Source: Escherichia coli (GTDB lineage Bacteria > Pseudomonadota > Gammaproteobacteria > Enterobacterales > Enterobacteriaceae). Taken from it: DNA of 64,000 nucleotides. Position numbers and translations under genes: made by a program. The notes beneath the pieces were generated by a model, which saw only the letters and a program-made list of their open reading frames with translations, ran no database searches and was not told where the DNA came from. This document shows, one piece after another, positions 1-23,852 of this stretch. The DNA is taken from NCBI RefSeq assembly GCF_036507355.1, contig NZ_AP027877.1; one strand, given 5' to 3'. Within the stretch, counting starts at the first letter, position 1. Each line of letters opens with the position of its first letter.

Positions 1-228
1 GTTCGATTTTTCTGACACGCCCTATACCGAAGAACAGATTGAATCCTTCAGAAACTGGCCCTCCCTGGGCCGAGGCAACCATCGTAAATCCGCGTTCAAT
101 GTTGCGTATTTCTTTGTGGAAAAACGCAGCCCGCTGACACCCAGGAAAATCACCAGAAATATCCGCATCCGTTAACGGTAGCGCGCATAACGGATAATGA
201 AAACGTCAATGAAAGGAGATCACCGAAG

Positions 229-747
229 ATGAGGAAAACCGCTGCCATGTTGCTTCTGGCATTTTCAGGTTGTGCCGGGGCAAAAACACTCCCCGCAGAA
301 AATTTGCAGGGGCTGTATGAGGCTTATGCCACCCTGAATACCTGCCACCAGTATGGTTACACTGGCGATGAGGCCTTAACTGCACTGGACAAACTTATCC
401 GCAGCAATCGCTATCAGGATAATAGCGGCAACATCATGACATTAATGAAGGACAATATTAACTATTACCATTCCCTTCAGGACCGCTTTATTCTTGAGCA
501 GCAATTCAAAAGCGAAGGAATAAACCAGAGCGGTATCCGGCTCCAGATAAAAACCCTCTGCGACCAGATGAACGCCGCTGTTGGTGGGAAGTTGGGTGTG
601 AAAACCCGTGTTATTTCACCGGATGACCTTCCCACCAGCGCAAAACCTGTTTTTGACAAACCGGTCACTAACAGTGCCCCGGCAATTCCGGAAGACCGAC
701 CGATGACATGGGACAACAGTCCGGTCCAGGGTATTCCGGTTCAGTGA
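229..747 (+). CDS. Hypothetical lipoprotein/secreted protein (172 aa)
   Basis: ORF with N-terminal hydrophobic signal and lipobox-like LAFSGC; no recognised catalytic motif. Confidence 0.4.
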   Translation: MRKTAAMLLLAFSGCAGAKTLPAENLQGLYEAYATLNTCHQYGYTGDEALTALDKLIRSNRYQDNSGNIMTLMKDNINYYHSLQDRFILEQQFKSEGINQSGIRLQIKTLCDQMNAAVGGKLGVKTRVISPDDLPTSAKPVFDKPVTNSAPAIPEDRPMTWDNSPVQGIPVQ

Positions 748-758
748 GGGGTAACACC

Positions 759-1073
759 ATGAAGAAGCATATTATTACCGCACTGCTCATCACAACAGTA
801 TCCGCTCCGGCGCTGGCAGCGTACCCGGTAAGCCAGCCTGCTCAGGCCGCAGAAGTGATGGTCAGTATATGCCAGCAGCAGCGTTCGGGTATGGACAAGA
901 ACCAGGCCATCCGTAAAGTCTATGGCACCGTAAGCGACTGGCCCATAGCTTCAACAACTGAAGTTGCTGCTGCGATGGATGAAGGATGGAATTTTGCTGT
1001 ACAAAATCCAGAGATAAGTTGCGACAGAATTTATCTCATGATGATTGACATGCTGGATGGGAAAAAGGATTGA
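759..1073 (+). CDS. Hypothetical small secreted protein (about 104 aa)
   Basis: ATG at 759 preceded by GAGGGG RBS; signal-peptide-like N-terminus (MKKHIITALLITTVSAPALAA). The track ORF from 708 overlaps the upstream gene, so the inner start is preferred. Confidence 0.4.
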   Translation: MKKHIITALLITTVSAPALAAYPVSQPAQAAEVMVSICQQQRSGMDKNQAIRKVYGTVSDWPIASTTEVAAAMDEGWNFAVQNPEISCDRIYLMMIDMLDGKKD

Positions 1074-1379
1074 GAAACCAAGCTTAACTTAAGTTGGCAA
1101 AACTAATCTGCATCAATTAAAATTTTACATAGCAATGTGCCCTCCAGCAGGGCACAATTATTATAAACCGTCTGCTATGAGCTGTGAGTTCAATGGGTCG
1201 ATGCAACGCTATTCTTAAATGAGAAGGACATTGACCGACTACGGTCAATAAAACAGTTTGAAGCAAAATCAGATTGCCTCAGCCCCTATCGTTCAGCATG
1301 ATTTTCCTGGAGAAAAGCGGTTTTGTGGCGGACCTGAACGGGCCGCCAGGTAAAACTCTGCTGCGAGAAAGAGGCCACA

Positions 1380-2146
1380 TCAGGCGGTGTGGTTGCTATC
1401 ATCTTGCATGAGATGGTTGGCTCGAAAGACCATCATCCCTTTTTGTCGAATAGCGTCAATCCACAAATCTGCCATCCACGAGTTGATGCCATAATGCTGG
1501 ATACAACATTCACGTATCAGCCGGTGTTCGTTCGCAATGGTAGTTGGCATCAAGGCGCTGTCATCCGTATTTAAACACACCGCCAGCGGCCCGCTGCGCA
1601 GGCCGTATTGGTTAAATTTTCCGCCGGTCGCCAACCATTCTGGATTAGGTGGATTCCAGCGAAAAAGCGGGTGTTCGTGATATTTCTCAAACCGACCAAT
1701 ATAAATATTTGAGGTTGGGCAGGCTTCAAACACTAAACCAAGACGGCTGTATTTTTCGGTTAGGTAATCCTGAATGGCTTCATACAGCTTAAGCTCCCCC
1801 TGAGAAATGAAATCCTCATCTTCAGACAGGGGCGACAAATAGCTATCAGTATCGTTAGGACAACAGTTAATGCAAATAATCCGGTTGGCGGGCTCCTTTT
1901 CATGCAAACCGCTGTTGAGATAGCGTTGCCATAAACGATAAGCAGTGACATTTTTCACTGACGGCGTATGATCTTCTTGCAACGCATCCCAGTCAGGGGC
2001 CCATTCCAGCCTATTCGCGCTGACGGACTCCAAGTTAGCATAATCAGGCCAATTGCGGCGCAGCAGCCACGCCTGATAAAGTAAGTTAGGCGTATAGATA
2101 TCTTTAAATATCCGCTGCGACCAGTGATGAATTTTATCGCGCAATT
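1380..2146 (-). pseudogene. C-terminal fragment of an adenosine-deaminase-family (amidohydrolase) protein, truncated by IS1
   Basis: 254-aa ORF carries the C-terminal ADA-type motifs (ACPTSN and CLNTDD) but lacks the N-terminal metal-binding half. Its reading frame runs straight into the IS1 left end at 2147. Confidence 0.5.
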
Positions 2147-2201
2147 GGTGATGCTGCCAACTTACTGATTTAGTGTATGATGGTGTTTTTGAGGTGCTCC
2201 A

Positions 2202-2477
2202 GTGGCTTCTGTTTCTATCAGCTGTCCCTCCTGTTCAGCTACTGACGGGGTGGTGCGTAACGGCAAAAGCACCGCCGGACATCAGCGCTATCTCTGCTCT
2301 CACTGCCGTAAAACATGGCAACTGCAGTTCACTTACACCGCTTCTCAACCCGGTACGCACCAGAAAATCATTGATATGGCCATGAATGGCGTTGGATGCC
2401 GGGCAACTGCCCGCATTATGGGCGTTGGCCTCAACACGGTTTTACGTCACTTAAAAAACTCAGGCCGCAGTCGGTAA
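2202..2477 (+). CDS. insA: IS1 InsA (transposition repressor)
   Basis: 91-aa [46 protein letters not shown]... recognised as IS1 InsA with zinc-finger CxxC pairs. Confidence 0.9.
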
Positions 2478-2899
2478 CCTCGCGCATACAACCGGGCAGT
2501 GATGTGATTGTCTGCGCTGAAATGGACGAACAGTGGGGCTACGTCGGTGCTAAATCACGTCAGCGCTGGCTGTTTTACGCGTATGACAGGATACGGAGGA
2601 CAGTTGTGGCGCACGTTTTCGGTGAACGCACTCTGGCCACACTGGAGCGTCTTCTGAGCCTGCTGTCGGCCTTTGAGGTCGTGGTATGGATGACGGATGG
2701 CTGGCCGCTGTATGAATCACGCCTGAAGGGAAAGCTGCACGTTATCAGCAAGCGTTACACTCAGCGCATTGAGCGACATAATCTGAATCTGAGACAACAT
2801 CTGGCAAGGCTGGGACGGAAGTCACTGTCGTTCTCAAAATCGGTGGAGCTGCATGACAAGGTCATCGGGCATTATCTGAACATAAAACACTATCAGTAA
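2396..2899 (+). CDS. insB: IS1 InsB (transposase catalytic part, normally made as an InsAB' frameshift fusion)
   Basis: 167-aa ORF inside IS1 overlapping insA in another frame; sequence recognised as IS1 InsB. Confidence 0.85.
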
Positions 2900-3069
2900 G
2901 TTGGAGTCACTACCGTAGAAGTTAAATCAGGAAAATCGAAAAAAATGAAACGTTCGGCATTGTCGTCGAGTTCCGCTTAATGACGTATCCATCCCGTTTT
3001 CCCCTTCACGTTTTCATGTTTGATAGAGGGCAAAATTGAGCCCTCTCAATCAAGATAATGAGTGAAAAC

Positions 3070-6000
3070 CTATACCGTCCAGCTGTTCGACACCACTTCA
3101 GCCTGCTTCAGTATCAGTTCAACTGCATAAGGTGTTTTATCTGGCGGATACTTGTACTTACGCAGCGTCTGACGCACCAGAATACGTAACCGCGCACGCA
3201 CGCTTTCTCGCACCTGCCAGTCTACGGTTGTGGACTGGCGCAATTTTAACGTGACTTCGATAGCCAGTTTCTTAAGGACGTCATCACCCAGCTCCCGTAC
3301 CGCACTTTCGTTTTCTGCCAGCGCATCGTAGAACGCGATTTCGTCCGGGTTTAGCCCCAGCGCTTCATCACGCGCCATCGCTTCCTGAAACTCTTTTGCC
3401 ATCTGGATCAGTTCTTCAATCACCTGCGCAGTTTCAATGGCGCGGTTATTGTATTTGAGAAGCACGGCTTTCAGGCGATCTGAGTATTTCTTCTCCTGCA
3501 CCACGTTGTTTTTGGTGCGGGCATGAATGCCGTCGTTCAGCAGTTTCTCCAGCAACTCGACTGCCAGATTACGCTGCGGCAATTCGCGCACTTCTTCCAG
3601 AAACTCGTCTGACAACAATCCAATATTCGGCTTATCCAGACCCGCCAGCGCAAACACATCATCCACGCCCGTCGCAATAATGGCGTTATCGAGGATTTTA
3701 CCGAGTAGCGTATTTTTCTCTGACTGACTGAATTTTTTGTCGGTTGTCGTCAGCTTGATAATCGCCACTTTCACCGCCGACAAAAACGCGATCTCTTTTT
3801 GCAAGGGTTTAGCTTCATCTAACGTACTGCACAGCGACCAGGCTTTGTTCATCGCCAGCACGACATCGAAAAAGCGCTTCTTACCGTCATCAAGGCCCAG
3901 CACATAATCTGCGGCTTTGAGTAAAAACCGTTGGGGCACCTCTGCAAAACCGGTGTAATCAAACCCGGCGGCGGTTGGTGTTTTGGCAAACATTCCATGA
4001 ATCACATCCAGCTTTTCAAGCAGGATGGAGAACGCTTCATGAGCATCGACTGTCGTCTGTCCTTTACCTTTTGAATCGGTATAAGTTTTCAGCGCCTGTT
4101 TCAGTTCATTGGCGATACCGATGTAATCCACCACTAAACCGCCCGGTTTATCTTTGAAGACGCGGTTGACGCGCGCAATGGCCTGCATCAGATTATGCCC
4201 GCGCATCGGTTTGTCGATATACATGGTATGACAACATGGCGCATCAAACCCGGTAAGCCACATATCGCGCACAATCACCAGTTTCAACGGGTCGTTGAGA
4301 TCTTTAAAGCGCGCTTCAAGGCGTTTTTTGGTTTGCTTATTGTAGATGTGCGGCTGAAGGAATTTATTATCGGAGGCTGAGCCGGTCATGATGATTTTGA
4401 TTTCACCTTTCTCGACGTCATCACTGTGCCATTCCGGGCGTAGAGCCACCAGCGCATCATACAGCTTCACGCAGATCTCACGGCTCATGGCAACAATCAT
4501 TGCTTTGCCATTCATTGTGGCGTTACGTGCCTCAAAATGCTGAACCAGATCGGCGGCCACCTCATTGATACGAGGTTCAGAACCAACCAGTTTTTCCAGA
4601 CGGCTCCAGTCACTTTTGGTTTTCTCTTTCTGATCGGTCTCTTCATCTTCGACCAGCTCATCCACCTGATTAGACAGCGTTTCCAGCTCTTCGTGGTTGA
4701 GGTCGAGTTTTGCCAGGCGCGATTCATAGTAGATAGGCACGGTTGCGCCATCTTCCACCGCATCCTGTATATCGTAGATAGAGACGTAATCACCAAACAC
4801 CGCGCGGGTGTCTTTATCTTCGGAAGAAACCGGTGTTCCGGTAAAGCCCATAAACGACGCATTGGGTAACGCATCGCGCATATGTTTGGCGTAACCGTAT
4901 TTATAAGCGCCAGTCTCCCGGTTCAGCGTGGCGCTAAGACCATACTGGCTGCGGTGCGCTTCATCGGAAATGACGACGATATTGCTGCGCAGGTTTAGCG
5001 CCGGGTGAGTCTGTTCGCCATCAAGCGGGGCAAATTTTTGTACGGTGGTAAAAATAATCCCGCCTGATTCACGGACATTGAGCATCTCGCGGAGCTGGTC
5101 GCGATCGTTTGCCTGTAACGGTTCCTGCTTAAGCAAATCCTGTGCCTGGCAGAAGGTGGCATACAGTTGGCCGTCGAGATCGTTACGGTCGGTCACCACC
5201 ACGATGGTCGGGTTGTTCATTTCCGCTTGTTGTAGCAGTTTTCCGGCGTAACAACACATCGAGATACTCTTACCGGAACCCTGCGTATGCCACACCACAC
5301 CGGCTTTTTTACTGCCTGGCGTGATGTTGCTGCGCAGCGGCAAGTGTTTACCGGTAGAGGCCACAATCGTCGCCGTCACCGCTTCACGTACTGCGTGGAA
5401 TTGGTGGTAAGCGGCAATCTTTTTAATCAGTCGTTTGCCGTCGCTTTCAAACAGGATGAAGTAACGAATGTAGTCGAGCAGCAGTTCGCGGTTAAAGAAC
5501 CCTTTTACTACCGTTTCAAGCTGCCATTCAAACAGCGGTTTGTCGTCTTCATTAGACAGCGTTTTCCACGGCAAGAAGCGCTCTTCGTTCGCGGTGAGAG
5601 AGCCAATACGGGCGTTGTAGCCATCGCTGACCACCAGCGCTTCGTTGCAGATGAACAGATCGCTGAGTTCGTTTTTATAGGTCTGCAACTGATTAAATGC
5701 CGCCCAGATATCGGCATTAGCATCAATCGGGCTTTTCAGCTCAATCACTACTACTGGCAATCCGTTGATATAGCAGATAACGTCCGGGCGACGTACCTGC
5801 TTCGTTCCCTGGATGGCCACCTGATTCACCACCGTAAAGTGGTTATTATTTGGGTGGTTAAAATCCATCAGTAGCGCTTTGTCGTGGATAACTTTGTCAT
5901 CCTGCTTGTACTGCACCGGCACGCCGTCGAGCAGCAGGTGATGGAAGGCTTTGTTACTGACGACCAGATCCGGGCTTTGCGCATGGGCGATACGCAGTAT

Positions 6001-6204
6001 CACCTCATCCAGCACGGCAACCGGGAGATGTGGGTTAATCTTTTGCAACTGCTCCAGTAGCACCGGGCGCAAAAACACATCGTGGAACGACGCACGCAGC
6101 GGATTGTTGCCATCTGGCGCAATATCCGGCCCGTGCAATACTTCCCAGCCCAGTTCAGCAAACCATTGCAGGCTTTGCTGTTCTAAATCGTCTTCGCTCA
6201 GCAT
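3070..6204 (-). CDS. hsdR: Type I restriction enzyme R subunit HsdR (1044 aa)
   Basis: Walker A ([11 protein letters not shown]), DEAH box ([11 protein letters not shown]) and overall helicase/translocase architecture. Last gene of the hsdM-hsdS-X-hsdR operon; its start overlaps the stop of the upstream gene. Confidence 0.85.
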
Positions 6205-7391
6205 CAGGTTTCCTCTGTCTCGGTTTCTTCCATTTCTTCGGGCACGTTTGAAATCTCTTTGAGCGCCATATTCAGTGGGGCAATAAAGGGATCTAACGCT
6301 TTTTCAAATGCCGTCAGGTTTACCAGTAGCCAGTCGATCATTTCAGGCCAGTTGGCTTCATCAAGGCTGATGGCCGGGCTGGCATAGGAAATTCGACACG
6401 ATTTTTTACCCGGCAGAGGTTCCCACTTAAGCGCATGGCCAAACGCGTTTTCAATTGCCTCTTTGCGTTCATGTAGCCAGTTAAAAGCAAAGGTATTGCT
6501 CTCTGCGGAAGCTTTGGCAATCCACAGCTCAACCCGAATCTCTTTTTTACTGAAAATCAGGTTATACGACACCGCGCTAATACCAGAGCCCGCACTGATC
6601 CAGTGATCGGTAGAGGGGCTGATATTGTTATATAAGTGGCAGGAGCTGGCTTTGAGGCGCTCCAGCATCTTTGTCCAGAAAGCTTTACGCATTAATTGGA
6701 CTGGCTTTACTCCGCCGCTGACGGATTGTTCTTCCGCCTCTTTTTGCGCCATACCGATCATGTAAGATTCTGCTTCCGGTGTGGGGATAACCTGACGGAT
6801 ATCAACGAATACATCGTCGTTGAACTTATAGGGTTTAACCTTAAAGCACTGTACCCGCAGACCAAATTGCATGAGCCACAGGGCAGTGTTGGTCACCTCT
6901 TTGCGAAAGTTGGCTGCGACCATGATGATTCGCTGTGTACGGCTCTGGTTGATTAAGGCTTCATCCAGCGTTTCATATTCGAGGAATTCAGCAAGCACCT
7001 CTGCCGCCGGGCGATTTTCCTCTGGGTCGTATTTATCCAGATAAAGCTGGAAGATCTGCAGAATTTGCTCTTTACGCAGGTTGGCGCAATACCCGGCATA
7101 TTTGAGCGCTTGCCAGACGACGTCGCGACCTGAATCATCGAGCTTATTCTCGATGATCACCAGATTGCCTTTTTTATCGATAGCCAGCAGGTCAAGGCGC
7201 TCTTTGGTGTCGTCAAAACCGGCGAACTCTTTCTGTATAATCAGTAGTTCATCGTCATTATCGCGAGTTAACGCTTGGGGATTCTGCGCCAGCCATTCCT
7301 GCAGATTGCCACGTTCGGTAAAACCAAGACTACTGAAAGAGACTTCCTGTAGGGAGTGTAAGCTGTTAGTCGGCGTATCAACTTTATACAT
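6204..7391 (-). CDS. PD-(D/E)xK (NucS/DUF91-like) nuclease-domain protein embedded between hsdS and hsdR (about 395 aa)
   Basis: Motif [21 protein letters not shown] resembles a restriction-endonuclease-fold D...ExK core. No Walker A, so not PrrC. Start and stop overlap hsdS and hsdR (translational coupling). Confidence 0.5.
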
Positions 7392-8769
7392 TTTCCACCT
7401 CACTGACTGCCTGTTCTGCTTCCTGCAGGGTAATTTCACCCGAGAGAAGTTTGGGGAGAAGGGTGTCGCGGAGTTGGGTTAGTGATTCAGTTTGTACACT
7501 GAGCGATTTAATCTCATTAAATAAATGTGTACATTTGGCATGAAATAACTCCAATACTTTAGCATCAGGCTGAGCGATTTTAATTCCTGAGAAAGTAGAC
7601 GTATTGACATTTAAAGTTGCACTACCTGCGCTACCTAAAATGTGAAGATGATCTTTCAATCCCAACATACAAAAATAAAGATAATAGAGTAAGGAACTCT
7701 TATGAGGTGTAACAGAATTTATTTGCTGATTGGTATGAGATGGTTCATTGGTGATAGAAACAACACCAATAGTAGCTATACAACTAACACAGATAGAATT
7801 TGCGGGTACAAGTTTTTTTAGTTGCGACTTTGAACCGGCTTCGCTTAAATATTCATTAGTTTTAAGCACAAAAAGTTGCCCATGCATATCTGGTATCTTT
7901 ATGAATGGAACATCACTACCGTAATACTCTGGTTCTTTTTTTGACGGAGTTTTGCCACAAGTAACCTTCCCCATCTCACTAATTGACGCCACCCCCCATC
8001 CTTTAGGAATCGCCCCTAACTCACTGTCCTGCATCGCTGCCGGAAACAGTTCTGCCGTGGCTTTTAACTCGGCATATTGCTCAGGGTGTTCACGCTCAAA
8101 AACCGCCAGCGCATCCGCATCTTTCCCAGAAATGGCGGTCATGGCGGCAAGTGTTGCGTCTGCCTGCGAACCGCCCGCATCCAGTACTGCCATTTTGGCT
8201 TTTACGGGGTCAAAATCAACAAACCAACTTTTGAACAGGGCTTGTGCCATTTGTTCGAGGGTTTGGTTGATGCGATTATTACTATCAATTTTTTTACTTA
8301 ACGTAAAAATTAGCTTTGTACATCTTTTTTGATATTTTAAAGAAGGAATCTTTATTTTGTAGCTCAGCATGGCCCCTTTATCACCTCGAGGCATTTTTGC
8401 GCCCTTGGATGTAAGATGGCTATAATTAATAAAATCATCACTGCTTAAAATCAAATGTAAATATTCACTTGTGAGTTTTTCATGTGTAGTCCTAAATACT
8501 AGCACATCAGGAGAAACACCTCCGTAAAATGTGGCAAACCATACTTTTTTAAAGTACGTTCGAATATTAGAAAATAAAGTATCACCTATTTCAAAAGAAT
8601 TAAATTTGTTGACATCAGGGATGCCTGATGAAATAGTTACACCCTGACGGTCAGGCAACATATTTTCCGTGGAAATATAATTAGTAACATCTATAATAGA
8701 TGCATCACATTTTTTTGTGACTATCTCTACAAAGTTACCTAACTCAGTTTCGATGAACTCAAAACTCAT
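7384..8769 (-). CDS. hsdS: Type I R-M specificity subunit HsdS (about 461 aa)
   Basis: Sits between hsdM and hsdR with size and position typical of HsdS; start overlaps the hsdM stop. The track ORF start at 8826 is rejected in favour of the ATG at 8769. Confidence 0.7.
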   Translation of the reverse strand: MSFEFIETELGNFVEIVTKKCDASIIDVTNYISTENMLPDRQGVTISSGIPDVNKFNSFEIGDTLFSNIRTYFKKVWFATFYGGVSPDVLVFRTTHEKLTSEYLHLILSSDDFINYSHLTSKGAKMPRGDKGAMLSYKIKIPSLKYQKRCTKLIFTLSKKIDSNNRINQTLEQMAQALFKSWFVDFDPVKAKMAVLDAGGSQADATLAAMTAISGKDADALAVFEREHPEQYAELKATAELFPAAMQDSELGAIPKGWGVASISEMGKVTCGKTPSKKEPEYYGSDVPFIKIPDMHGQLFVLKTNEYLSEAGSKSQLKKLVPANSICVSCIATIGVVSITNEPSHTNQQINSVTPHKSSLLYYLYFCMLGLKDHLHILGSAGSATLNVNTSTFSGIKIAQPDAKVLELFHAKCTHLFNEIKSLSVQTESLTQLRDTLLPKLLSGEITLQEAEQAVSEVENV

Positions 8770-10468
8770 AACCCAGCCCCCCCAGATTCGCCTTAATCTG
8801 CGCTTCCAACTTCGCGCTCTCTTCAAGCTGATCTTTAAGCTGCGCCGTCAGGCGCGCCATCTTCTCGGCAAACGGTTCATCATCTTCAGCTTGCTCGGCG
8901 GCACCAACGTAGCGCCCAGGGGTCAGCACAAAGTCGTTTTTCTGGATATCCTCCAGCGTTGCTGAGAAGCAGAATCCGGCTTCGTCTTCGTAGTCTTTAT
9001 CCGTCTGCCAGGCGTGGAAGGTATCGGCAATTCTGGCGATATCTTCGCGGGTAAAGTCGCGCAACACGCGATCTTTCATATAACCAATCTGGCGCGCGTC
9101 GATAAACAGCACTTCACCTTTACGGTGCGCTTTGCCGTTGCCACCGGATTTATCTTTGGTCAGGAACCAGATACAGGCTGGGATTTGGGTGTTGGTAAAC
9201 AGTTGCCCTGGCAGCGCCACCATACATTCCACCAGATCCGCTTCAATCAGGTTGCGGCGGATCTCGCCTTCATTGTTAGTGTTGGAACTCATCGAACCGT
9301 TCGCCAGCAGCAGCGCCATCGAACCTTTTGGCGCGAGGTGGTGGATCATGTGCTGCATCCACGCAAAGTTGGCGTTGCCCTGCGGCGGTGTGCCGTATTT
9401 CCAGCGCACGTCGTTTTCCAGCTTCGCGTTCCACCACTCCTTCATGTTGAACGGCGGGTTTGCCATCACGAAGTCAGCGCGCAGATCCGGGTGCTGGTCG
9501 TCTAGCAGGGTGTCGGCGTTTTTGGCACCAAAGTTAAAGTCGATACCGCGGATCGCCATGTTCATCGCCGCCAGCTTCCAGGTGGTCGGATTCGACTCCT
9601 GGCCGTAAACGGAAATATTGCGCTTCTGCTCAGCGGCGTTGTAATTCTTTTCGCCCGCGTGCTCTTCAATGAAACGGTCGCTGGAAACGAAGAACCCGCC
9701 GGAACCCATTGCCGGGTCATACACCCGCCCGTTGTACGGTTGCAGCATTTCGACAATCAGGGTCACGATGCTTTTTGGCGTGTAGTACTGACCTCCCTGT
9801 TTACCTTCCGCCAGCGCGAATTGCCCCAGGAAATATTCGTAAACGTGGCCGAGAATATCTTTGCTCTTTAAGCTGAGTTTCTCGCCGTTATATTCCGGGT
9901 TGCTGAAGTTTGCGTCAGAGAAGGTATTAATCAGCCCGGTCAGCACCTCGTTACTCAGTTGATACTGGCTGATGCGATTCAGAATACCTTTCAGTTTCGG
10001 GTTGGTTTTTTCGATTTCATCCAGCGCGTTATCCACCAGCCAGGAGACAGAGCGCAGCGTCACATCCTTGCCGGTGGTTTCATCCACCCACAGCACGGTG
10101 CCGGTCGGCAACATGGCTTTGTTTTTCAGCGTGTCCCAGCGCGCGGCTTTTGGCACCCAGAAGATGTTCTTTTCGGTGTAGTAATCTTCAACTTCCAGCT
10201 CTTCCTGGATAGCCTGAGCGTATTCTTCGTCGGAACCGTAATCATCGCGCGACATGGCGTAGATGTTGTCGGGATTACCGACATCGCGGAACAGGGTCGT
10301 CAGCTCCTGCTGACGCGCCTCGAAGGCATCAGAAACATACTTCAGGAAGATTAGCCCCAGCACCACATGCTTGTAGTTGGCGGCATCCATATTGGCGCGC
10401 AGTTTGTCGGCGGCCTTCCAGAATTTGTTATCCAGCTCGTTCAGAAATAGCTGTTCAGCGTTGTTCAT
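8759..10468 (-). CDS. hsdM: Type I R-M DNA methyltransferase subunit HsdM (about 569 aa)
   Basis: N6-adenine methyltransferase catalytic motif NPPF (FVMANPPFNMKEW) and an AdoMet-binding region (VYDPAMGSGGFF); first gene of the operon. Confidence 0.85.
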   Translation of the reverse strand: MNNAEQLFLNELDNKFWKAADKLRANMDAANYKHVVLGLIFLKYVSDAFEARQQELTTLFRDVGNPDNIYAMSRDDYGSDEEYAQAIQEELEVEDYYTEKNIFWVPKAARWDTLKNKAMLPTGTVLWVDETTGKDVTLRSVSWLVDNALDEIEKTNPKLKGILNRISQYQLSNEVLTGLINTFSDANFSNPEYNGEKLSLKSKDILGHVYEYFLGQFALAEGKQGGQYYTPKSIVTLIVEMLQPYNGRVYDPAMGSGGFFVSSDRFIEEHAGEKNYNAAEQKRNISVYGQESNPTTWKLAAMNMAIRGIDFNFGAKNADTLLDDQHPDLRADFVMANPPFNMKEWWNAKLENDVRWKYGTPPQGNANFAWMQHMIHHLAPKGSMALLLANGSMSSNTNNEGEIRRNLIEADLVECMVALPGQLFTNTQIPACIWFLTKDKSGGNGKAHRKGEVLFIDARQIGYMKDRVLRDFTREDIARIADTFHAWQTDKDYEDEAGFCFSATLEDIQKNDFVLTPGRYVGAAEQAEDDEPFAEKMARLTAQLKDQLEESAKLEAQIKANLGGLGYEF

Positions 10469-10800
10469 GTAAATCCTCGGGGTAGATCGCAGCGAAAGAG
10501 CAACCATGCCTTATCGCAAATTCAGTTTTGGAATGCAGTTCGCAAAATGATACCCGGTACACTTACGATTACAAATGCGCGGTATAAAGAAGTTTGCATT
10601 TGATCGGTGAATAATAGGAAACTCAGTCACTGTTTCGTCTGCAAAATCAGCCATTTCGCCTTCATACGTAGTTCTTCGGTTGAATAGTAAGGTCTATCAT
10701 GCTGCATCGAACGGTGATTTTGATGGATGTTGGAAGTGAGTAGCTGTACGTAATTTTTGATTAAAAGTAATCAAAATGTTGCCAATGGTTATGCTATCGT

Positions 10801-11724
10801 GTGTTTTTTGAATATATAACAGGTAAAACTATGTCCTGGCTTAATTCTGTCTTATTGGCGCTTACCTCGGTGCAACCTTATATGGTACCGGCAACCGTTA
10901 TCGGCCTCGTCAGTTTTGCATTCCTCTGTTTTATTTTCTTTTATTTTTTTAGAGCAGTTAAAATTATTAACGGCCTGAAAAAATATACTCAGTCAATTAA
11001 TGGCATCGAAAATAATGAGCCTGGTAATCAGCTTCAGCATCTGCAAAGTTTGTTTGTACAGCCTGAGTTAAAGCACGCCTGGAATGAATTCGAAGAATCG
11101 TTGCACTCACAATATGAACTGGAGGACGGGGAAGAGAAAATCGTCCGTATTAGGGCTACTGCACCGAGCGCCAGTTTCTTCTCGGAGCAACAACTGGTCG
11201 ATATTCCGCTGAACACCGAATTTTTCAAACACCTGCCCGGTATTCTGACCGGTGTGGGGATTATCGGTACCTTCTACGGTCTGATGATTGGTCTCAACCA
11301 CTTCGACCCCAGCACACCAGAGCAGGTCTCCAGCAGCGTCAATAATCTGCTTCGCGATGTGCTGTACGCCTTCCTCGGTTCAGCATTTGCGATTACGTTC
11401 TCTATCCTTATCACCTGGCTGGAGAAATTCTGTCTGGCGAAATGCTACAAATATCTGGAAAAATTCACCGCAGCTCTCGACGCCCTCTATGACAGCGGTG
11501 TTGGCGAGGAGTACCTTGCCTCACTGGTAAAATCCAGTAATGAAAGCGCGACCCAGGCACGCCATCTGAAAGAGAGCCTGGTTACCGATTTACGCGATAT
11601 GCTGCTGCATCTGGCCAACAGCCAGAAAGTGGAAAACGAGCGGCTAGCGACCACCCTCAGCACCACCTATCGCGAAACAGGACAACAGTTTGCCGAGCAA
11701 GTCAGCGGTGCGATTGAAAACTGA
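10801..11724 (+). CDS. MotA/TolQ/ExbB-family proton-channel (stator-like) membrane protein (about 297-307 aa)
   Basis: Three predicted TM helices with TolQ/ExbB-like spacing. TM2 carries the family signature (LPGILTGVGIIGTFYG, compare TolQ GLFGTVWG). The stop codon TGA is formed by the first three bases of IS629, so the 3' end is disrupted or altered by the IS. Confidence 0.55.
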   Translation: MFFEYITGKTMSWLNSVLLALTSVQPYMVPATVIGLVSFAFLCFIFFYFFRAVKIINGLKKYTQSINGIENNEPGNQLQHLQSLFVQPELKHAWNEFEESLHSQYELEDGEEKIVRIRATAPSASFFSEQQLVDIPLNTEFFKHLPGILTGVGIIGTFYGLMIGLNHFDPSTPEQVSSSVNNLLRDVLYAFLGSAFAITFSILITWLEKFCLAKCYKYLEKFTAALDALYDSGVGEEYLASLVKSSNESATQARHLKESLVTDLRDMLLHLANSQKVENERLATTLSTTYRETGQQFAEQVSGAIEN

Positions 11725-12989: not shown

Positions 12990-13153
12990 GTTCACAGATA
13001 AAACACTCTCCAGGAAACCCGGGGCGGTTCACACTATTATTTCTCCGGTTAGCCTACAACAACGTTTTTATCAGAAGCTCAACCAGCAGATAATAGAAAT
13101 GAAAAACCCATTGCAGTGAAATTATTTTTGACAACATACAGCAGGAGTAAAAA

Positions 13154-13999
13154 ATGTTACGTGGTTCAGAAAGAAAAGAAGCATTAGCCAGTCTCAAAAG
13201 TGCAACTAACCGTTATGAAGTACAGGCTAAAGACACCCAGGATGAGATCACTGCCCTCTTTCTGTTACGCCAGAAATGCAGTAAGGACCTGATTGCCCGT
13301 GGTGAAAATTTTGTTAATCGACTGGCGAATACACCGAAAGAGTTTGATAAATCCTGGAGCGAATTGAAAGCGGAAATCGCTGAATTTGATAACGTGGTGG
13401 AAAAACTGGAAGAAGAATACCGCGCATCACATATTGGTAAAGGAACGGCTGCTGCGGGGGTTGCCGTTGGGGCGGGGGTCGCCGCATTTGCCCCTACGGC
13501 TGCGCTGGCGGTCGCAACAACTTTTGGTACAGCATCCACGGGTACCGCTATTGCTACGTTAAGCGGAGCTGCCGCAACAAATGCAGCCCTGGCATGGCTC
13601 GGCGGCGGCGCACTGGCTGCGGGTGGCGGTGGCATGTCAGCAGGAAGCGCACTACTGGCTCTGGCGGGTCCAATAGGCTGGGGGATTGGTGCTGTAGGCA
13701 TCGCTGGCGGAACCTTACTAGCCCGTCGCAAAAACGGTAAAATCATTGATGAAGCACAACAGGAAGAGCGCCAGGTTCGCGCAAAAACCAGCGAACTTCG
13801 CGTGATGGAACGTGGTGCGCAAGAACTCAAGATGCTCACATCCGAGCACTATCATGGTACTGAAAGCATTATTGATGTGCTGGAAAAGGCTGCGCCTCAA
13901 GACTATTGCCAGTTTAATACCCATCAGAAAGATCAATTAGGGGCATTGATTAACCATATCAATGCATTATCAAAACTGATCAACAAGAAAATCCAGTAA
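13154..13999 (+). CDS. Hypothetical protein with central Gly/Ala-rich glycine-zipper membrane segment (281 aa)
   Basis: Helical N- and C-terminal regions flank a Gly/Ala-rich hydrophobic stretch of about 100 aa (GTAAAGVAVGAGVAAF ... GWGIGAVGIAGG). Its stop overlaps the next start (TAATG). Confidence 0.5.
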   Translation: MLRGSERKEALASLKSATNRYEVQAKDTQDEITALFLLRQKCSKDLIARGENFVNRLANTPKEFDKSWSELKAEIAEFDNVVEKLEEEYRASHIGKGTAAAGVAVGAGVAAFAPTAALAVATTFGTASTGTAIATLSGAAATNAALAWLGGGALAAGGGGMSAGSALLALAGPIGWGIGAVGIAGGTLLARRKNGKIIDEAQQEERQVRAKTSELRVMERGAQELKMLTSEHYHGTESIIDVLEKAAPQDYCQFNTHQKDQLGALINHINALSKLINKKIQ

Positions 14000-15444
14000 T
14001 GAGCATTAACCATAATACAGTTGGCGACCAGCTTATCGGCAGCGCGGTTAACGCCATTAATCAGACCCGCATTGATAATGAACTGTTAAAACTATCGCAG
14101 CAGGATCGTGCATTTGAGTTGGCTGGCGAACAAATGCAAAAGGTGCGTGATTTCATCGCGTCACCGGGTAACATCCTGGGCTCAATGAGCACCAAACACG
14201 GTGAAATTGCTGAGCAGGTAGAAGTTGGCGTGCGCAATGCTCGCCAGGCAATAGAAGAAAGGGTTCAGGATGCCTCTGATCTTAGCGCCACGTTTGACGG
14301 AGTGGGTCGAACCGCTCCGGCGGATTATATGATAGATGGCGTTGACGTGCAGTCAAAGTTTATCAACGGAGTTAATAATAACCTGAACCATGTCCTTCAG
14401 CACATGGAAACCTATCCCAATTTCACCCGGGGAGAATCCTTTTACCATATCCCCAAAGACTCCTGGCAAACGATTCAGGATGTTATTGATGGGAAGCCGG
14501 TGGAGGGCTTGAGCGAAAAAACAATACAGGCTATCAGGGATAAAGTTGCAGAAATTGAAAGTACAACGGGAAGATCCTTTAATGATGTCGTGCGTCCTGG
14601 AGTTTCTGATTACAAAGATGTTCAGTGGGGAAAAATTGACGAAACTCTTGATAAACATGATCAGGAATTAGCGGAACAGAACGAGGCAAAAAAAGCAGAA
14701 ATTATTGACGATCACCAACCCTCCCTAAGTGAAGGCATGCGTGCAACCGCAATGGGAGCCGCTTTCGGTGGAACCTTTGCTCTTGTAACAGGTATATATA
14801 GCAAATACCGTGACGGTAAAAATATATTTCGTGGAGATTTCAACAGACAGGACTGGCAGGATGTCGGCTTAGATACATTGAAAGGTGCCGCTATTGGCGG
14901 TGTATCCGCCGGAGCAATTTATACCCTGACCAATTATGCCTCTCTGGGAGCACCGTTCGCCAGCGCGCTGGTCACTGCCGCTAAAGGTGTAAGCAATCTT
15001 GCTCTCTCCTATCAGCGCGGTGAGATTAATGCTGATGAATTTACCGATCTTGGCCTTATCATCTGCGCGGAATCGGCCATCGTTGGCGCAATGTCTGTCG
15101 CAGGTCAGGCAATCATCCCTGTGCCTGTTTTGGGGGCATTGGTTGGTTCTATCTCAGGGAAGTTTATGGTTACCGTAGCTAAAAATCTGGACAGTAAAGC
15201 ACGCCAATTGCTGGCGAAAAAAATGGAGCAATTTACATGTCGCTTAAGTGAGATTGAGCAGAAAGCACTCAACCGAATTTTGAACGAGTTCGCGGCGCTG
15301 GGTGAGCTTACCGCAGCTGCATTTAGCGTGGAAAACAATCGCCGGTTGCTGGAAGCAAGCATCACGCTTGCCCAAGCCCACGGTGTTGAAGAGGCGAAGA
15401 TAATCAAAAATGCGGATGATCTTGACACATTTATGATGGCGTAG
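13999..15444 (+). CDS. Hypothetical protein with C-terminal glycine-zipper membrane segments (481 aa)
   Basis: Soluble N-terminal region of about 240 aa, then several Gly/Ala-rich hydrophobic segments (GAAFGGTFALVTG, GAAIGGVSAGAIYT, AIVGAMSVAGQAII). Translationally coupled to the upstream gene. Confidence 0.5.
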   Translation: MSINHNTVGDQLIGSAVNAINQTRIDNELLKLSQQDRAFELAGEQMQKVRDFIASPGNILGSMSTKHGEIAEQVEVGVRNARQAIEERVQDASDLSATFDGVGRTAPADYMIDGVDVQSKFINGVNNNLNHVLQHMETYPNFTRGESFYHIPKDSWQTIQDVIDGKPVEGLSEKTIQAIRDKVAEIESTTGRSFNDVVRPGVSDYKDVQWGKIDETLDKHDQELAEQNEAKKAEIIDDHQPSLSEGMRATAMGAAFGGTFALVTGIYSKYRDGKNIFRGDFNRQDWQDVGLDTLKGAAIGGVSAGAIYTLTNYASLGAPFASALVTAAKGVSNLALSYQRGEINADEFTDLGLIICAESAIVGAMSVAGQAIIPVPVLGALVGSISGKFMVTVAKNLDSKARQLLAKKMEQFTCRLSEIEQKALNRILNEFAALGELTAAAFSVENNRRLLEASITLAQAHGVEEAKIIKNADDLDTFMMA

Positions 15445-15480
15445 CACTCGAATAAAAATTACAGCAAGGATAAAACCACA

Positions 15481-18003
15481 ATGCTACAGATAATTGGTGC
15501 GTTAATTTTACTGGTAATCGGTTTTGTTATTATAAAAGCGTTGTTTAAGGCATCTCTCAATATTCTAGGTGTGATATTAGGATTGGGTGCATTGATTGTT
15601 GCAGGCCCACCTTTATTGGCGGGCTATATTGTAGAGCGCGTAACCTATGCGCTTCACTCACGTTGGCTGCTGGGTGTACCTCTTGCCATAGCAGGAATGG
15701 TGATTAGCTTTATGTGGGGACTTGATGGTAAACATATTGCCTACGAAGCCTATTCATTTGATTCAATGAAGTTTATTTTAACCGCTGCATTTGCCAGTGG
15801 CCTGCTTGCAGTACCTGTACAAACCAAGGCTATTCTACAAAACGGGCTTATACCAGCCGATATCAATGCCAAACTTAAAGAGTATTATTGCTGTTTTTAT
15901 ACGTCTTACTTTTTGATGGCCTGCTCTGCGGCTACACCGTTTATAGCCTGGCAATATAATATCTCATCTTCACTGATGTGGTGGACAGGATTGCTATACT
16001 GGATAGCAGCCTTACTGACACAGTTCTATGCGGCAAACCAAATTCAGGAACTCAAGAAGTTAACTAATGCCATCAATACAGGGTTAAATGAGCAAAAAGC
16101 GATCAATAACCAACTTTGGCTGACGGAACTAAAAGAAGGAAGTAACCTCTCAGCAGAATTCGTAGAGACTATCTATCTTAAGTTGGTCTCACAGCATATT
16201 TTTCAGGGCGATACTCGAGAGCAGGATCTGGCTGGTGAAAACTGGCTTTTAAATGATGCCTGGTATGAAAGAAAGATGGCTGAATTTAATGAGCAGTTAA
16301 ACAGTAAAATTGTACACTCATCAGATGAGCTAAGAAGCCTTTTTGGTAATAGGCTGAATTTACCCTCTGCTGCGAATGATGATCTCCTGAACCGTTATCT
16401 TGATGGTGGGAACTATTATTCTTTTTCGGATGGTCGAAAATTTGTCTCGTTTCACTATGTCGACGAGCTTTGTACCTGCACTTCATGCGGTTTGAGCGAG
16501 ATTAAAAACGCAAAACACCAGGACGGTTGTGGGAGCCAGGAATGGTATTGCTCTGATATTTGCCGGGAAACGGAAAAACTCTGCATTGAAATTCACAAGC
16601 GACCACAGGCTGAATTTATTTCCAGTGCAGCAACAAACGGTCTGATTCTCATGACGCTCCCGGAGGCCTGGAATACTAACGAAAAAATGTTTGCAGTGGG
16701 AGGACAAGGACATGGTTTTGCAGCCGAACGGGGAAATCATCTTACTGACAAAATCCAACTAAAAGATGCACATATTCTCGGTGATGATAATGCGAAAAAT
16801 GGTGCAGACAGGCTGGTTAACGGTTCAGAGATTCAGACCAAATACTGTGCAACCGCTGCACGTAGCGTCGGTGCTGGTTTTGACGGACAAAACGGTAATT
16901 ATCGCTATTATGACAGTAACGGAACCCCAATGCAGTTAGAGGTTCCGAAAGACCAGTATTCGAAAGCGCTTGAAACGATGGAGAACAAAATTCGCGATGG
17001 CAAAGTCCCCGGCGTTACCGATCCTGCAGAAGCCACAAAACTTGTACGTCAGGGACACCTGACTTATAGCCAGGCACAAAACATTACTAAGTTTGGCACG
17101 TTCGAATCTATCACTTACGACATTGCGGAAGGATCTATCATCAGCCTCGCAGCTGGAGGTATCAGCTTCGGTCTGACAGCTTCTATTTTCTACCTCAATA
17201 CCGGCGATCGTAAGGCTGCGTTGCAAACGGCAGCAATACAGGCAGGTAAAACATTTACCCGCACACTGACAGTTTATGTGACGGTACAGCAATTACACCG
17301 TATCAGTGCCGTTCAGGGGTTACTTAAAAATATTGATTTTGCCGCTGCCAGCCCGACAGTTCGTAATGCGCTTCAACAGGGAGTCGGAGCTAACAATCTC
17401 AACTCCCTTAACAAGATGATGCGTGGCACACTGGTTACCTCTTTCGCACTGGTCGCCGTGACCACTGGTCCGGATATGATCAAAATGGTGCGAGGTCGTA
17501 TTTCTGGGGCACAGTTTATAAAAAATCTGGCAGTTACTTCATCTGGTGTGGCTGGGGGGGCAATTGGTTCTATTGCTGGCGGAATGATGCTTAGTCCATT
17601 AGGTCCTTTCGGTGCTTTAGCAGGACGCGCAGCTGGTGGCTTGTTAGGCGGTATGATTGCCACAGCGATTTCCAAAAAAATAGCGGGTGCACTGGTTGAA
17701 GACGACCGAGTAAAAGTGCTGGCTCTCATCCAGGAACAGGTTACATGGCTTGCAACAAGTTTCATGCTTACAGCACACGAACTTGAAAACCTGAACGCGA
17801 ATCTGGCAACAGTAATTGACCAAAAAACCCTGGAGGTTATCTTCGCCGCAAAAGAGCAAGACCGAGCAACGGCCAATATGCTGATTAAACCACTTGTAGT
17901 AAGTGTGGTTAAGCAACGACCGGTCCTGAGCTATGAACAATCGCAAATCTGCGAAATGGTCGATCAGCTTGATACATCGGTTTCATTATCTGCTGTTGCA
18001 TAA
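15481..18003 (+). CDS. Hypothetical large membrane protein (840 aa): N-terminal multi-TM domain, Cys-rich zinc-ribbon-like segment, C-terminal glycine-zipper region
   Basis: About six N-terminal hydrophobic helices; Cys cluster CTCTSCGLSEIKNAKHQDGCGSQEWYCSDICRETEKLC; C-terminal Gly-rich segment SSGVAGGAIGSIAGGMMLSPLGPFGALAGRAAGGLLGG. Confidence 0.5.
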   Translation: MLQIIGALILLVIGFVIIKALFKASLNILGVILGLGALIVAGPPLLAGYIVERVTYALHSRWLLGVPLAIAGMVISFMWGLDGKHIAYEAYSFDSMKFILTAAFASGLLAVPVQTKAILQNGLIPADINAKLKEYYCCFYTSYFLMACSAATPFIAWQYNISSSLMWWTGLLYWIAALLTQFYAANQIQELKKLTNAINTGLNEQKAINNQLWLTELKEGSNLSAEFVETIYLKLVSQHIFQGDTREQDLAGENWLLNDAWYERKMAEFNEQLNSKIVHSSDELRSLFGNRLNLPSAANDDLLNRYLDGGNYYSFSDGRKFVSFHYVDELCTCTSCGLSEIKNAKHQDGCGSQEWYCSDICRETEKLCIEIHKRPQAEFISSAATNGLILMTLPEAWNTNEKMFAVGGQGHGFAAERGNHLTDKIQLKDAHILGDDNAKNGADRLVNGSEIQTKYCATAARSVGAGFDGQNGNYRYYDSNGTPMQLEVPKDQYSKALETMENKIRDGKVPGVTDPAEATKLVRQGHLTYSQAQNITKFGTFESITYDIAEGSIISLAAGGISFGLTASIFYLNTGDRKAALQTAAIQAGKTFTRTLTVYVTVQQLHRISAVQGLLKNIDFAAASPTVRNALQQGVGANNLNSLNKMMRGTLVTSFALVAVTTGPDMIKMVRGRISGAQFIKNLAVTSSGVAGGAIGSIAGGMMLSPLGPFGALAGRAAGGLLGGMIATAISKKIAGALVEDDRVKVLALIQEQVTWLATSFMLTAHELENLNANLATVIDQKTLEVIFAAKEQDRATANMLIKPLVVSVVKQRPVLSYEQSQICEMVDQLDTSVSLSAVA

Positions 18004-18166
18004 TGAAAGGTATAAATTCATTACCATCGTGATATGGTGCTTCAGACGAAGCAAACTTAAATACCATTAACCCCATGATACTATTGTAAAATCCAAAAAA
18101 AATAATAGTAATCATCATAATGAACTGGTTCGAACAGACTGCGGAAGAGTATGGAGAATTAACAAA

Positions 18167-18186
18167 TAAGGGGGCATTTGCCCCCT
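18167..18186. terminator. Candidate bidirectional rho-independent terminator between the 840-aa gene and arsC
   Basis: Perfect 8-bp GC-rich stem AAGGGGGC/GCCCCCTT with a 4-nt loop, flanked by T-rich sequence on both strands. Confidence 0.5.
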
Positions 18187-18192
18187 TCATCA

Positions 18193-18618
18193 TTATTTCA
18201 GTCGTTTACCTGCATCATCAACGACTTTCTCGCCGTCTTCCTTAGCAAATGCGCCTTTTTGCGCATCCGGAAGAATATCCAGTACCACTTCGGAAGGACG
18301 GCACAGACGCGTTCCCAATGGTGTCGCCACAATCGGGCGATTAATCAGGATCGGATACTGAAGCATAAAATCGACTAACTGATCGTCAGTAAACTTATCT
18401 TCCGCAAGCCCCAGTTCTTCATAAGGTTCAACATTTTTACGCAATAGTGCCCGTACCGTTATCCCCATATCTGCGATGAGTTTGAGCACCTCATCGCGTG
18501 AAGGTGGATTTTCAAGGTAAAGAATAACGTTCGGTTCAGTACCGCTGTTGCGGATCATCTCCAGCGTATTACGCGACGTGCCGCAGGCTGGGTTGTGATA
18601 AATAGTGATGTTGCTCAT
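18193..18618 (-). CDS. arsC: Arsenate reductase ArsC (141 aa)
   Basis: MSNITIYHNPACGTSRNTLEMIR... with the catalytic Cys in the HNPACGTSR motif; recognised as enterobacterial ArsC. Confidence 0.85.
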   Translation of the reverse strand: MSNITIYHNPACGTSRNTLEMIRNSGTEPNVILYLENPPSRDEVLKLIADMGITVRALLRKNVEPYEELGLAEDKFTDDQLVDFMLQYPILINRPIVATPLGTRLCRPSEVVLDILPDAQKGAFAKEDGEKVVDDAGKRLK

Positions 18619-18630
18619 ATCAATATCTCA

Positions 18631-18840
18631 TTACAAAGTGAAAGAGAGACGTAGCGCCAGCGCGGCCAGCGTTACAAACAGCACAGGCAGAGTCATGATG
18701 ATCCCGGTGCGGAAATAGTATCCCCAGGTGATGGTCATGCTCTTCTGTGAAAAGACATGCAGCCAGAGTAGCGTTGCCAGGCTACCAATAGGTGTAATTT
18801 TCGGCCCCAGATCGCAGCCAATCACGTTGGCATAAATCAT
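18631..18840 (-). pseudogene. arsB: arsB 3' fragment (C-terminal about 69 codons of the arsenite efflux pump)
   Basis: Encodes only the hydrophobic C-terminal end of ArsB immediately upstream of arsC. No arsB 5' region or arsR is present, so the ars operon is truncated here. Confidence 0.7.
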
Positions 18841-19072
18841 CGCCTCTTTGATAACGCATCATACTGCCAGCGGAATAACTCTCTTCGTCAATACGGCTCT
18901 CGCTGTACGCTTACCCATCTAGAGAGGTTTCAGGTGATTATCGATGTCAGAAGACTGAATGATTCAGTCGTTTACTTTGAGATAGATCAGAGGTTTTTCA
19001 CTACCTGTGTTCATCACATGGCTACGAATAGTAGAATCCAAGCATAAATTAACGCTTAGAAAAGTTGAGCTC

Positions 19073-22000: not shown

Positions 22001-22882
22001 GAAGAGAAAAAAGCTGGTTCGCTTATTCCTTACTCTATTAAGTCTCGTATTGAACATCTTTTTACTGCACCAGGAGAAGGAGCGGACCACGCTATAGCTA
22101 TAACGTCTCGCAATCTAAATTGGCTAATGTTTGTTGATCCTGCATGGGTAAAGGAATGGCTTATACCCCTTTTGGATTTAAAACATCCTGCAGCAGAACC
22201 AGCATGGAATGGTTATCTTCAGTGCAATGCTATGCCTTCAATTGCAGTAGCTGAACTTATTAAACCAGCTTTTCTTAACCTTATCCCTTGGATCGAATCT
22301 CTTTCTTGGGAAAAAGATTATTCAGTTCGAGCTTCGCAATGGCTTGGCTTAATGAGAATGTTTCACCCTGATGAGCCCTCCAGTCCTTCCAGGAATGAAA
22401 TGCGCTCCATATTACGAGCATTATCTGACGAGGCTCGAAATCGTTTTATTTCCTGGTTAGGATTGGTCGGGCAGAAAAACGAGAGTGGCTGGGTTAAGTA
22501 TGTGATCCCATTAATCAGAGAGGACTGGCCCAAAGAACGCCAATATAGAACCACGAGCTCTGTAAAAGCATGGATTGGTTTACTTGACGATACTGGCGAT
22601 AAGTTTCCGGAGGTTTACGATTCAGTAAAAACATACTTAGTACCAATCGAGACAATTGATCATTTGTTCTACAGATTCACTCGGGAGCTCGGTGGTAAAG
22701 GAGCAATTGCGGCTATTTTTCCAGAAACCACGCTTGATTTAATGGACAAAATAACACCACTGATATTCACGCGTACATCAGGAGAGCTGCAGAAGATTCT
22801 TGAGCTAATTGAAGATACAGATACAAGTCTGATCAAGGATTCTCGGTACTTACGGCTTATTGCACTGGTTGAGAAAAATTAG
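19073..22882 (+). pseudogene. Large SIR2-domain protein gene (about 1,270 codons) interrupted by two in-frame stop codons
   Basis: N-terminal SIR2-like motifs (VVFLCGAGVSLPSGMPSF; IVTTNFDRLFE). Track ORFs 19007-20272, 20309-20998 and 21104-22882 all lie in the same frame, separated only by TAG at 20270-20272 and TAA at 20996-20998. Confidence 0.65.
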
Positions 22883-23040
22883 CATTTATGGTTTTTTACC
22901 GTTGTTGATTACTCAGCAACACTTTTCGACATGCCGTAGCGCTTATCGCCTGTTCTTGACTAAGATGAGAAGCAGGCGTTAAAGTTTGGTTAAAGGAGAA
23001 CCTCTAACCATTCCTTCTGGAAGAAATAATCTTTGGAGTA

Positions 23041-23769
23041 TTATTGAAATTGCTCAAATATACCATGCAACCCAATAAATTTTATTTTTAGTGCAGGATC
23101 ATGCCTTAGAACAGTCTCAAGTGAGTTCCGCTCATAAATTATTGATTGTGCTTGTATTGAGCCGTTCCATGAAGGCAAAAGCAGTAAAGCAGATGTTTCC
23201 AAATCAATACCCCACCAATCGTTAACATAGCAATTTAAAAAATCAACAAGAGCCTTAATCGCAATAAAAGCATCTTTTTCGGTATATGTTTCAGGATCGA
23301 GGGATATACCTGATATATTACTTTTAGCTTGCTCGGAATTAATATTAGACTGGTGTTGATAAGCAATTTTTCCTTCACCCGGTTTAGTTTCTATTGTATC
23401 AGTGAAAATTTTAATCTTAGGATGCACCAATGCATTTCGTTGTGCTATTAATTCTTTTATTATTTGTGTTTGAGTGGTTCCACGAGGTAAAGACATGTCT
23501 TTATGCCATTGAAGAGTATAGTCAAATTTATCAAGTGAAGAGAACCTGTCAATTTGATCTTTTAACTTTTGCGTTATTTCTATAGAAGATAAAAATGAGT
23601 TAGCTGCAGCCTCAATAGCGTAGTTAATTGAAAGTACACTTGATTTGGCAAGTGTTTTTTTGATGTGTGATTTTTTTGTTGCAGCTGATAATTCATAAAG
23701 AGTTATTGCATCAGAAAAAAGCTCAAAAAAGCTGTTCTTGGTTATTTCAACTTTTCTTTTCACACGCAA
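23041..23769 (-). CDS. Hypothetical protein (242 aa), third gene of the uncharacterised operon
   Basis: ORF in a low-GC region 84 bp downstream of the 504-aa gene on the same strand; no recognisable motifs. Confidence 0.45.
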   Translation of the reverse strand: MRVKRKVEITKNSFFELFSDAITLYELSAATKKSHIKKTLAKSSVLSINYAIEAAANSFLSSIEITQKLKDQIDRFSSLDKFDYTLQWHKDMSLPRGTTQTQIIKELIAQRNALVHPKIKIFTDTIETKPGEGKIAYQHQSNINSEQAKSNISGISLDPETYTEKDAFIAIKALVDFLNCYVNDWWGIDLETSALLLLPSWNGSIQAQSIIYERNSLETVLRHDPALKIKFIGLHGIFEQFQ

Positions 23770-23852
23770 CCCTCTGCATAAAAAATAAAATCATATAGAC
23801 AGAATACAATTTCCTATAATCTTTACATTCTACTAATTGTGGATATAAATGG

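Follow-up and report, generated by a model that had tools for sequence, protein, structure and literature searches.

In RADAR, a heptameric AAA+ ATPase (RdrA) docks on a dodecameric shell of RdrB, which deaminates ATP and dATP to ITP and dITP in infection. This RdrA/RdrB pair is said to have been described as an anti-phage system by Gao et al. in 2020. According to the structural and functional study of Duncan-Lowey et al. (2023; PMC9994260), the solved Escherichia coli RdrB has the zinc ligands H152, H154, H498, and H530 and the catalytic residue E501, and defence requires both proteins and both active sites, point mutations in either site abolishing it. The window analysed here is a stretch of 64,000 nt of E. 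coli DNA (contig NZ_AP027877.1), and very probably holds a non-functional remnant of RADAR that has been joined through IS1 to the hsd/Zorya module of a different island (Table 1).

Table 1. Positions of the rdrB remnant, the IS elements and their junctions, and the neighbouring defence genes in the window.
Feature	Position	Strand	Evidence or remarks
3' remnant of rdrB (RADAR adenosine deaminase)	1380-2146	-	Profile searches, tblastn, collinearity
Left 9-bp flank of IS1, cgcgcaatt	2138-2146		catgcatta follows in intact rdrB
IS1 (IS1X2-like), 768 bp, apparently intact	2147-2914	+	Sequence, ORFs, alignment of the inverted repeats
IS1 left inverted repeat (IRL)	2147-2169		23 bp; 18 of 23 positions match IRR
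IS1 insA	2202-2477		91 aa
IS1 insB' frame	2396-2899		Open
IS1 A6C frameshift motif	2453-2459		-1 frameshift
IS1 right inverted repeat (IRR)	2892-2914		23 bp
Right 9-bp flank of IS1, gtagaagtt	2915-2923		In SK1144 preceded by ...aatcacaaat; the UvrD-like helicase gene starts 22 bp downstream
Segment joined to IS1	2915-11721		hsdR, DUF4268 gene, hsdS, hsdM (all -); first 297 codons of zorA (+)
hsdR	3070-6204	-	
Truncated Type I Zorya, zorA codons 1-297	10831-11721	+	PADLOC ZorA1, profile positions 1-295 of 727
IS3-family element	11722-~13028		Left end fused to zorA
PDC-M09A	13154-13999	+	PADLOC
PDC-M09B	13999-15444	+	PADLOC
840-aa gene	15481-18003	+	No PADLOC match
Dsr1-like SIR2 gene	19250-22882	+	PADLOC; single intact 1,210-aa gene in Z226-5
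Olokun-like module	23041-27843	-	Includes a 242-aa gene
OloB-like gene	23853-25367	-	PADLOC
OloA-like gene	25270-27843	-	PADLOC

The remnant consists of 2 nt of codon 600, codons 601-854, and the stop codon (1380-1382) of rdrB; that is, 767 of the 2,565 nt of the AR_0128 gene are kept, the break lies inside codon 600, and the front ~70% of the gene is gone. It forms an ORF of 254 aa (1380-2144, minus strand) that contains the motifs ACPTSN and CLNTDD and whose frame remains open for 21 further codons past the junction, into IS1. The first-pass annotation had described an adenosine-deaminase-family gene that was truncated by IS1 and whose frame ran into the element, and had cautiously suggested RADAR RdrB; these points hold. 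Its statement that the C-terminal half of an ADA-like domain remained is correct as to the C-terminal end, but what is left is the C-terminal 30% of the 854-aa RdrB rather than a half.

The remnant protein matches the PADLOC RdrB model (PDLC02218) with 474.9 bits (E=1.2e-142) over profile positions 606-853 of 855, and NCBIfam NF041744 (RADAR RdrB) with ~324 bits (E=2.1e-96) over positions 599-850 of 850; at 324 bits it stays under the equivalog cut-off of the latter model (800) and is not full length. When the intact, PGAP-annotated RdrB WP_001442952.1 was used as the tblastn query, its residues 599-854 were found in the remnant at 98.8% amino acid identity. The remnant is collinear with positions 15300-16066 of the reference locus L001 and carries three substitutions relative to AR_0128 (two of them non-synonymous), which are too few for any statement on selection. 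A direct comparison with solved structures matched the fragment to the E. coli RdrB chains 8fnw/8hr7 at no better than E=0.04, a result that is uninformative alone and becomes useful only when the intact allele is added. PGAP labels the 254-codon ORF as a 'hypothetical protein' (WP_306460771.1) and not as a pseudogene. It is next to inconceivable that the fragment is instead a piece of a housekeeping adenosine or cytosine deaminase. A weak match to Pfam A_deaminase (PF00962) extends across 34 residues, but it reaches 21.7 bits against a cut-off of 27; the NCBIfam models of the housekeeping enzyme give no more than ~27 bits (24.6 to 27.2) against cut-offs of 216-530, with TIGR01430 (24.6 bits against 216.55) placing the remnant outside this family, whereas the RdrB models give ~324 to 475 bits, and annotated rdrB genes that adjoin rdrA share 99.6% DNA identity with the fragment. 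Because the RdrB models score high and the housekeeping deaminase models lie far under their cut-offs, the fragment is firmly assigned to RADAR as the tail of its deaminase RdrB. The comparison between housekeeping and defence deaminases that had been proposed as a check was thus decided clearly in favour of RdrB.

The equivalents of the active-site residues in the 854-aa allele are H168, H170, H516, and H548 (zinc) and E519 (catalytic), all upstream of the break at codon 600. H516, E519, and H548 were mapped by alignment to H498, E501, and H530 of the solved E. coli RdrB, whereas no alignment covered the region of H168 and H170, which were taken as the expected counterparts of H152 and H154 from the NHVHF motif only. 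The remnant thus has neither the zinc-histidine tetrad nor the catalytic glutamate, and the N-terminal part with insertions 1 and 2 of the 2-fold interface is missing as well; the only surviving motifs are CPTSN (residues 742-746) and NTDD (792-795). The open stretch offers one start codon only, a TTG (2144-2142) that lies two bases from the junction. A tblastn search with RdrA across the whole 64-kb window gave no match, in agreement with the earlier view that the partner genes are gone, and no co-oriented rdrA adjoins the fragment. The possibility that small convergent ORFs on the left side of rdrB (229-747 and 759-1073) are RADAR accessory genes was rejected, because they have no PADLOC match and the wrong orientation. 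Full length, the catalytic residues, and the rdrA partner, i.e. all the features by which a functional RADAR was tested, are lacking. With neither rdrA nor a credible start codon, and without the zinc-histidine tetrad and the catalytic glutamate, the remnant is, judged from its sequence, non-functional and cannot act as RADAR, and the missing parts predict that conversion of ATP and dATP to ITP and dITP and protection against T-even phages by this locus are absent.

The element that cuts rdrB has the length, inverted repeats, insA/insB' arrangement, and A6C motif of the IS1 family and is present as a single copy in the window. Positions 1-2914 of the window are 99.97% identical (one mismatch) to the locus of strain ET881, where PGAP annotates the counterpart as an IS1X2-family transposase with programmed frameshift. 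No target-site duplication was found at IS1, the two flanks matching at no nearby length; the IS1 right end followed by the intact rdrB continuation would read GGAGTCACTACC+CGCGCAATTCATGCATTACGG, and the 9-bp duplication of a simple insertion in rdrB would be CGCGCAATT. A missing target-site duplication is expected after deletion or recombination and is no argument against the IS1 identity; it is known as a mark of adjacent deletion or of recombination of one IS copy with another (PMC11708052). To the left of the element, window positions 1-2146 are collinear with the rdrA-rdrB island of AR_0128 at 99.6% identity, and the collinearity ends exactly at the first base of IS1. To the right, positions 2915-11721 are collinear with the hsd/Zorya island of SK1144 at 99.99% identity, from the first base past IS1. 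Because IS1 joins two segments that belong to different intact islands, it is identified from these alignments as the joint of a rearrangement, and a simple insertion is ruled out. The difference between the two 9-bp flanks had already been recognised in the first-pass annotation and read there as the mark of a deletion or rearrangement, as had the restriction-modification operon next to the fragment, which proves to be of type I (hsdR, a DUF4268 gene, hsdS, and hsdM, all on the minus strand). A composite IS1 transposon carrying the hsd/Zorya genes was also considered and rejected, the window having one IS1 and the other boundary being IS3.

Intact relatives of both flanks were found among 5,426 complete E. 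coli genomes. Megablast with window positions 1081-2146 detected the allele in 23 genomes; 21 of these have an intact gene annotated as rdrB, and the remaining two (ET826 and ET881) have a 765-nt gene for a 'hypothetical protein'. The rdrB gene of AR_0128 (854 aa) lies directly downstream of rdrA (836 aa), with PADLOC scores of 1485 bits for RdrB and 1354 bits for RdrA, and the proposed inspection of related genomes for the intact gene and its neighbours therefore yielded relatives with rdrA immediately upstream. The hsd/Zorya module was found in 47 genomes and, in SK1144 and JKHS016, the two non-ET loci that were inspected, lies in the yagU-thrW region and not at ycgV. The DUF4268-domain gene of this module (6204-7439, minus strand) is situated between hsdR and hsdS and overlaps both, and the same order is kept in SK1144 and JKHS016. 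Where IS1 now sits, SK1144 (locus L004, 8132-11979) contains DNA absent from the window that encodes a 1,010-aa UvrD-like helicase, preceded by an integrase, and a 272-aa protein without a match. The helicase matches the PADLOC models of GajB and of a DRT-associated helicase. The helicase and the 272-aa protein of complete hsd/Zorya islands may represent a further defence module that is lacking in the lineage of the window.

Three complete genomes of the same lineage (ET826, ET881, and ET729), from one frog-farm sampling site in Shantou, allow the locus to be compared among siblings. ET826 has both IS1 junctions as in the window and a complete zorABCD. ET881 has the identical junction between rdrB and IS1, but the right end of its IS1 is fused to the base corresponding to window position 20573, inside the Dsr1-like gene; it is without the restriction-modification, Zorya, and PDC-M09 genes, having lost ~24.8 kb relative to ET826 (an estimate from coordinates). 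ET729 lacks the remnant, IS1, and hsd; in this genome the left end of IS3 directly adjoins the base equivalent to window position 1276. The window itself has the same IS3 left end (11722) as ET729, fused to codon 297 of zorA, and misses ~7.17 kb of ET826 including zorB, zorC, and zorD. These deletions are nested and have a fixed IS end in common, which is the classical signature of IS-mediated adjacent deletion. The deletion in ET881 is not explained by recombination of two IS1 copies in an ET826-like genome, because ET826 has no IS1 at the endpoint of this deletion.

From these direct observations we infer the order of events and the mechanism of the deletion, of which IS1-mediated adjacent deletion is the most likely cause. 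A single tRNA-Thr-like attachment site upstream of ycgV would first have collected several integrase islands in tandem, after which IS1 would have inserted into rdrB. Intramolecular transposition of IS1 from its right end (adjacent deletion) would then have taken out the DNA as far as a point 22 bp before the UvrD-like helicase gene, so that a single IS1 with no target-site duplication remained. Codons 1-599 of rdrB, with the zinc ligands and the catalytic glutamate, and all of rdrA are gone. Intermediates were sought with three junction queries against the 5,426 complete E. coli genomes. The junction between rdrB and IS1 was present in ET826 and ET881 only and that between IS1 and the hsd flank in ET826 only, and the junction between zorA and IS3 occurred in none of the 5,426. 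In none of these genomes does a 9-bp duplication flank an IS1 in rdrB next to an intact rdrA, and none combines an IS1 at the hsd flank with a retained helicase gene. The tandem-island ancestor is hypothetical, because the RADAR and hsd/Zorya islands are adjacent in no sequenced genome.

A possible but somewhat doubtful alternative is that the joint goes back to homologous recombination of an IS1 in rdrB with a second, separate IS1 upstream of the helicase gene of an hsd/Zorya island. It would be consistent with the hsd/Zorya module being bounded by IS elements on both sides (IS1 on the left and, in ET826, IS3 ~200 bp after zorD), with its occurrence elsewhere only in yagU-thrW islands and not at ycgV (in the loci inspected), and with the missing target-site duplication, for which recombination of IS copies is a common cause (PMC11708052). 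The second IS1 could have arrived on incoming DNA, and RADAR would then have been swapped out as a module and not simply deleted. However, no genome among the 5,426 has IS1 at either site alone, and the further deletion in ET881 starts from the same IS1 end without a second IS1 partner in ET826. Since no intermediate was found, the two mechanisms are formally indistinguishable for the first event, adjacent deletion being preferred.

Whatever formed the joint, it created a promoter-like hybrid site (2131-2160, minus strand) that points into the remnant, with a -35 box TTGGCA in the IRL of IS1, a -10 box TAAAAT in rdrB, and an 18-nt spacer; 10 of 12 positions agree with the consensus, as a pattern match in a consensus scan only. 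The remnant may be transcribed from this site. That the 254-codon ORF is expressed from this IS1/flank promoter and has a role of its own, e.g. as a dominant-negative or decoy RdrB fragment, is nevertheless highly improbable. The open frame, the promoter-like site across the junction, and the identity of the ORF in ET826 and ET881 over the 1,066 compared bases would fit such a role, but the predicted -10 box lies downstream of the TTG, the only candidate start, and no in-frame ATG follows until the Met of 'SALMPTT', late in the ORF as read from the translation. In addition, the catalytic residues and the N-terminal part with insertions 1 and 2 are absent, no RADAR partner is encoded in the window, the fragment has been wholly lost in ET729, and the identity among siblings reflects recent common ancestry and not selection. 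The fragment is an ordinary pseudogene in a decaying defence island.

Beyond the IS3 element, window positions 13029-29655 are 99.96% identical to the thrW (tRNA-Thr) island of Z226-5 and PSJ-29. This segment contains a gene for a P4-like integrase (28247-29482, minus strand) and ends in a 49-nt 3' fragment of tRNA-Thr (~29607-29655), which was seen only by comparison with PSJ-29; ARAGORN detected no tRNA in the window. AR_0128 shares the sequence upstream of ycgV from position 29614 onward. These alignments suggest that ycgV has a secondary attachment site resembling tRNA-Thr, at which islands accumulate. The window is a mosaic in which IS1 and IS3 link three island segments, and a history of tandem island accretion at one attachment site followed by IS-mediated pruning is plausible but unproven. 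A region of ~2.5 kb (31124-33617) is absent from ET826, ET881, and AR_0128 at the corresponding site upstream of ycgV; it contains two ORFs of ~270 aa (31146-31958 and 32397-33215, both on the minus strand) and is possibly another mobile element.

RADAR is not the only inactivated system. Zorya I, cut by IS3, and the Dsr1-like gene are also dead in the window, so that three of ~6 systems (RADAR, Zorya I, and the Dsr1-like gene) have been inactivated. The Dsr1-like gene carries two premature stops, a G>A change at 20271 found in the window only and a C>A change at 20998 in common with ET826, where PGAP annotates the pieces as 'SIR2 family protein' and 'hypothetical protein'. Two further candidate defence modules seem to be intact, namely the plus-strand genes from PDC-M09A to the 840-aa gene (13154-18003) and the Olokun-like module on the minus strand.

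RADAR, IS1-associated deletions, and mosaic defence islands are all already established, and the locus leaves the knowledge of RADAR and IS1 unchanged. For genome surveys, the remnant alone strongly matches the PADLOC RdrB model, and calls of presence or absence should require rdrA together with a full-length rdrB; the source strain is to be scored as negative for RADAR, Zorya, and Dsr1, although its DNA matches each of them. On a small scale, the sibling series illustrates cleanly how IS elements drive the turnover of a defence island, with stepwise loss of systems. Tentatively, and with the odds rather against it, the window and the three siblings might be taken to record how IS1 and IS3 rebuilt and eroded a defence island within a very short time; the two elements would have stitched the ycgV-site island and two islands of the yagU-thrW region into one array before deleting outwards in nested steps. 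If the losses were selected, the systems being costly or autoimmune, and not neutral, the lineage would be a natural system for the rates and fitness effects of defence-system turnover.

As to the known systems that the locus resembles, a single IS with non-matching flanks, each collinear with a different intact locus, and sibling genomes with nested deletions from one fixed IS end are features it shares with IS-mediated adjacent deletions; it differs from them in that the flanks come from islands at different reference sites (ycgV vs yagU-thrW), and a prior accretion or transfer step is therefore also needed. With the thrW islands of E. coli that carry P4-like integrases it has in common a near-identical segment dense in defence genes, whereas in the window this segment adjoins the RADAR island upstream of ycgV, instead of being at thrW, and IS1 and IS3 connect it to other modules. 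Compared with RADAR, the fragment fits the C-terminal end of RdrB throughout, and the intact alleles, at 99.6% DNA identity, form a two-gene rdrA-rdrB operon with the same order of active-site motifs (HxH, HAGE, GHG, and then NTDD). The 854-aa allele belongs to PADLOC subtype PDLC02218 and is distant from the solved 799-aa E. coli RdrB, to which phmmer aligned it with E=1.7e-15 over conserved blocks only. Unlike RADAR, however, the locus retains 30% of rdrB only and no rdrA, and is a relic and not a system.
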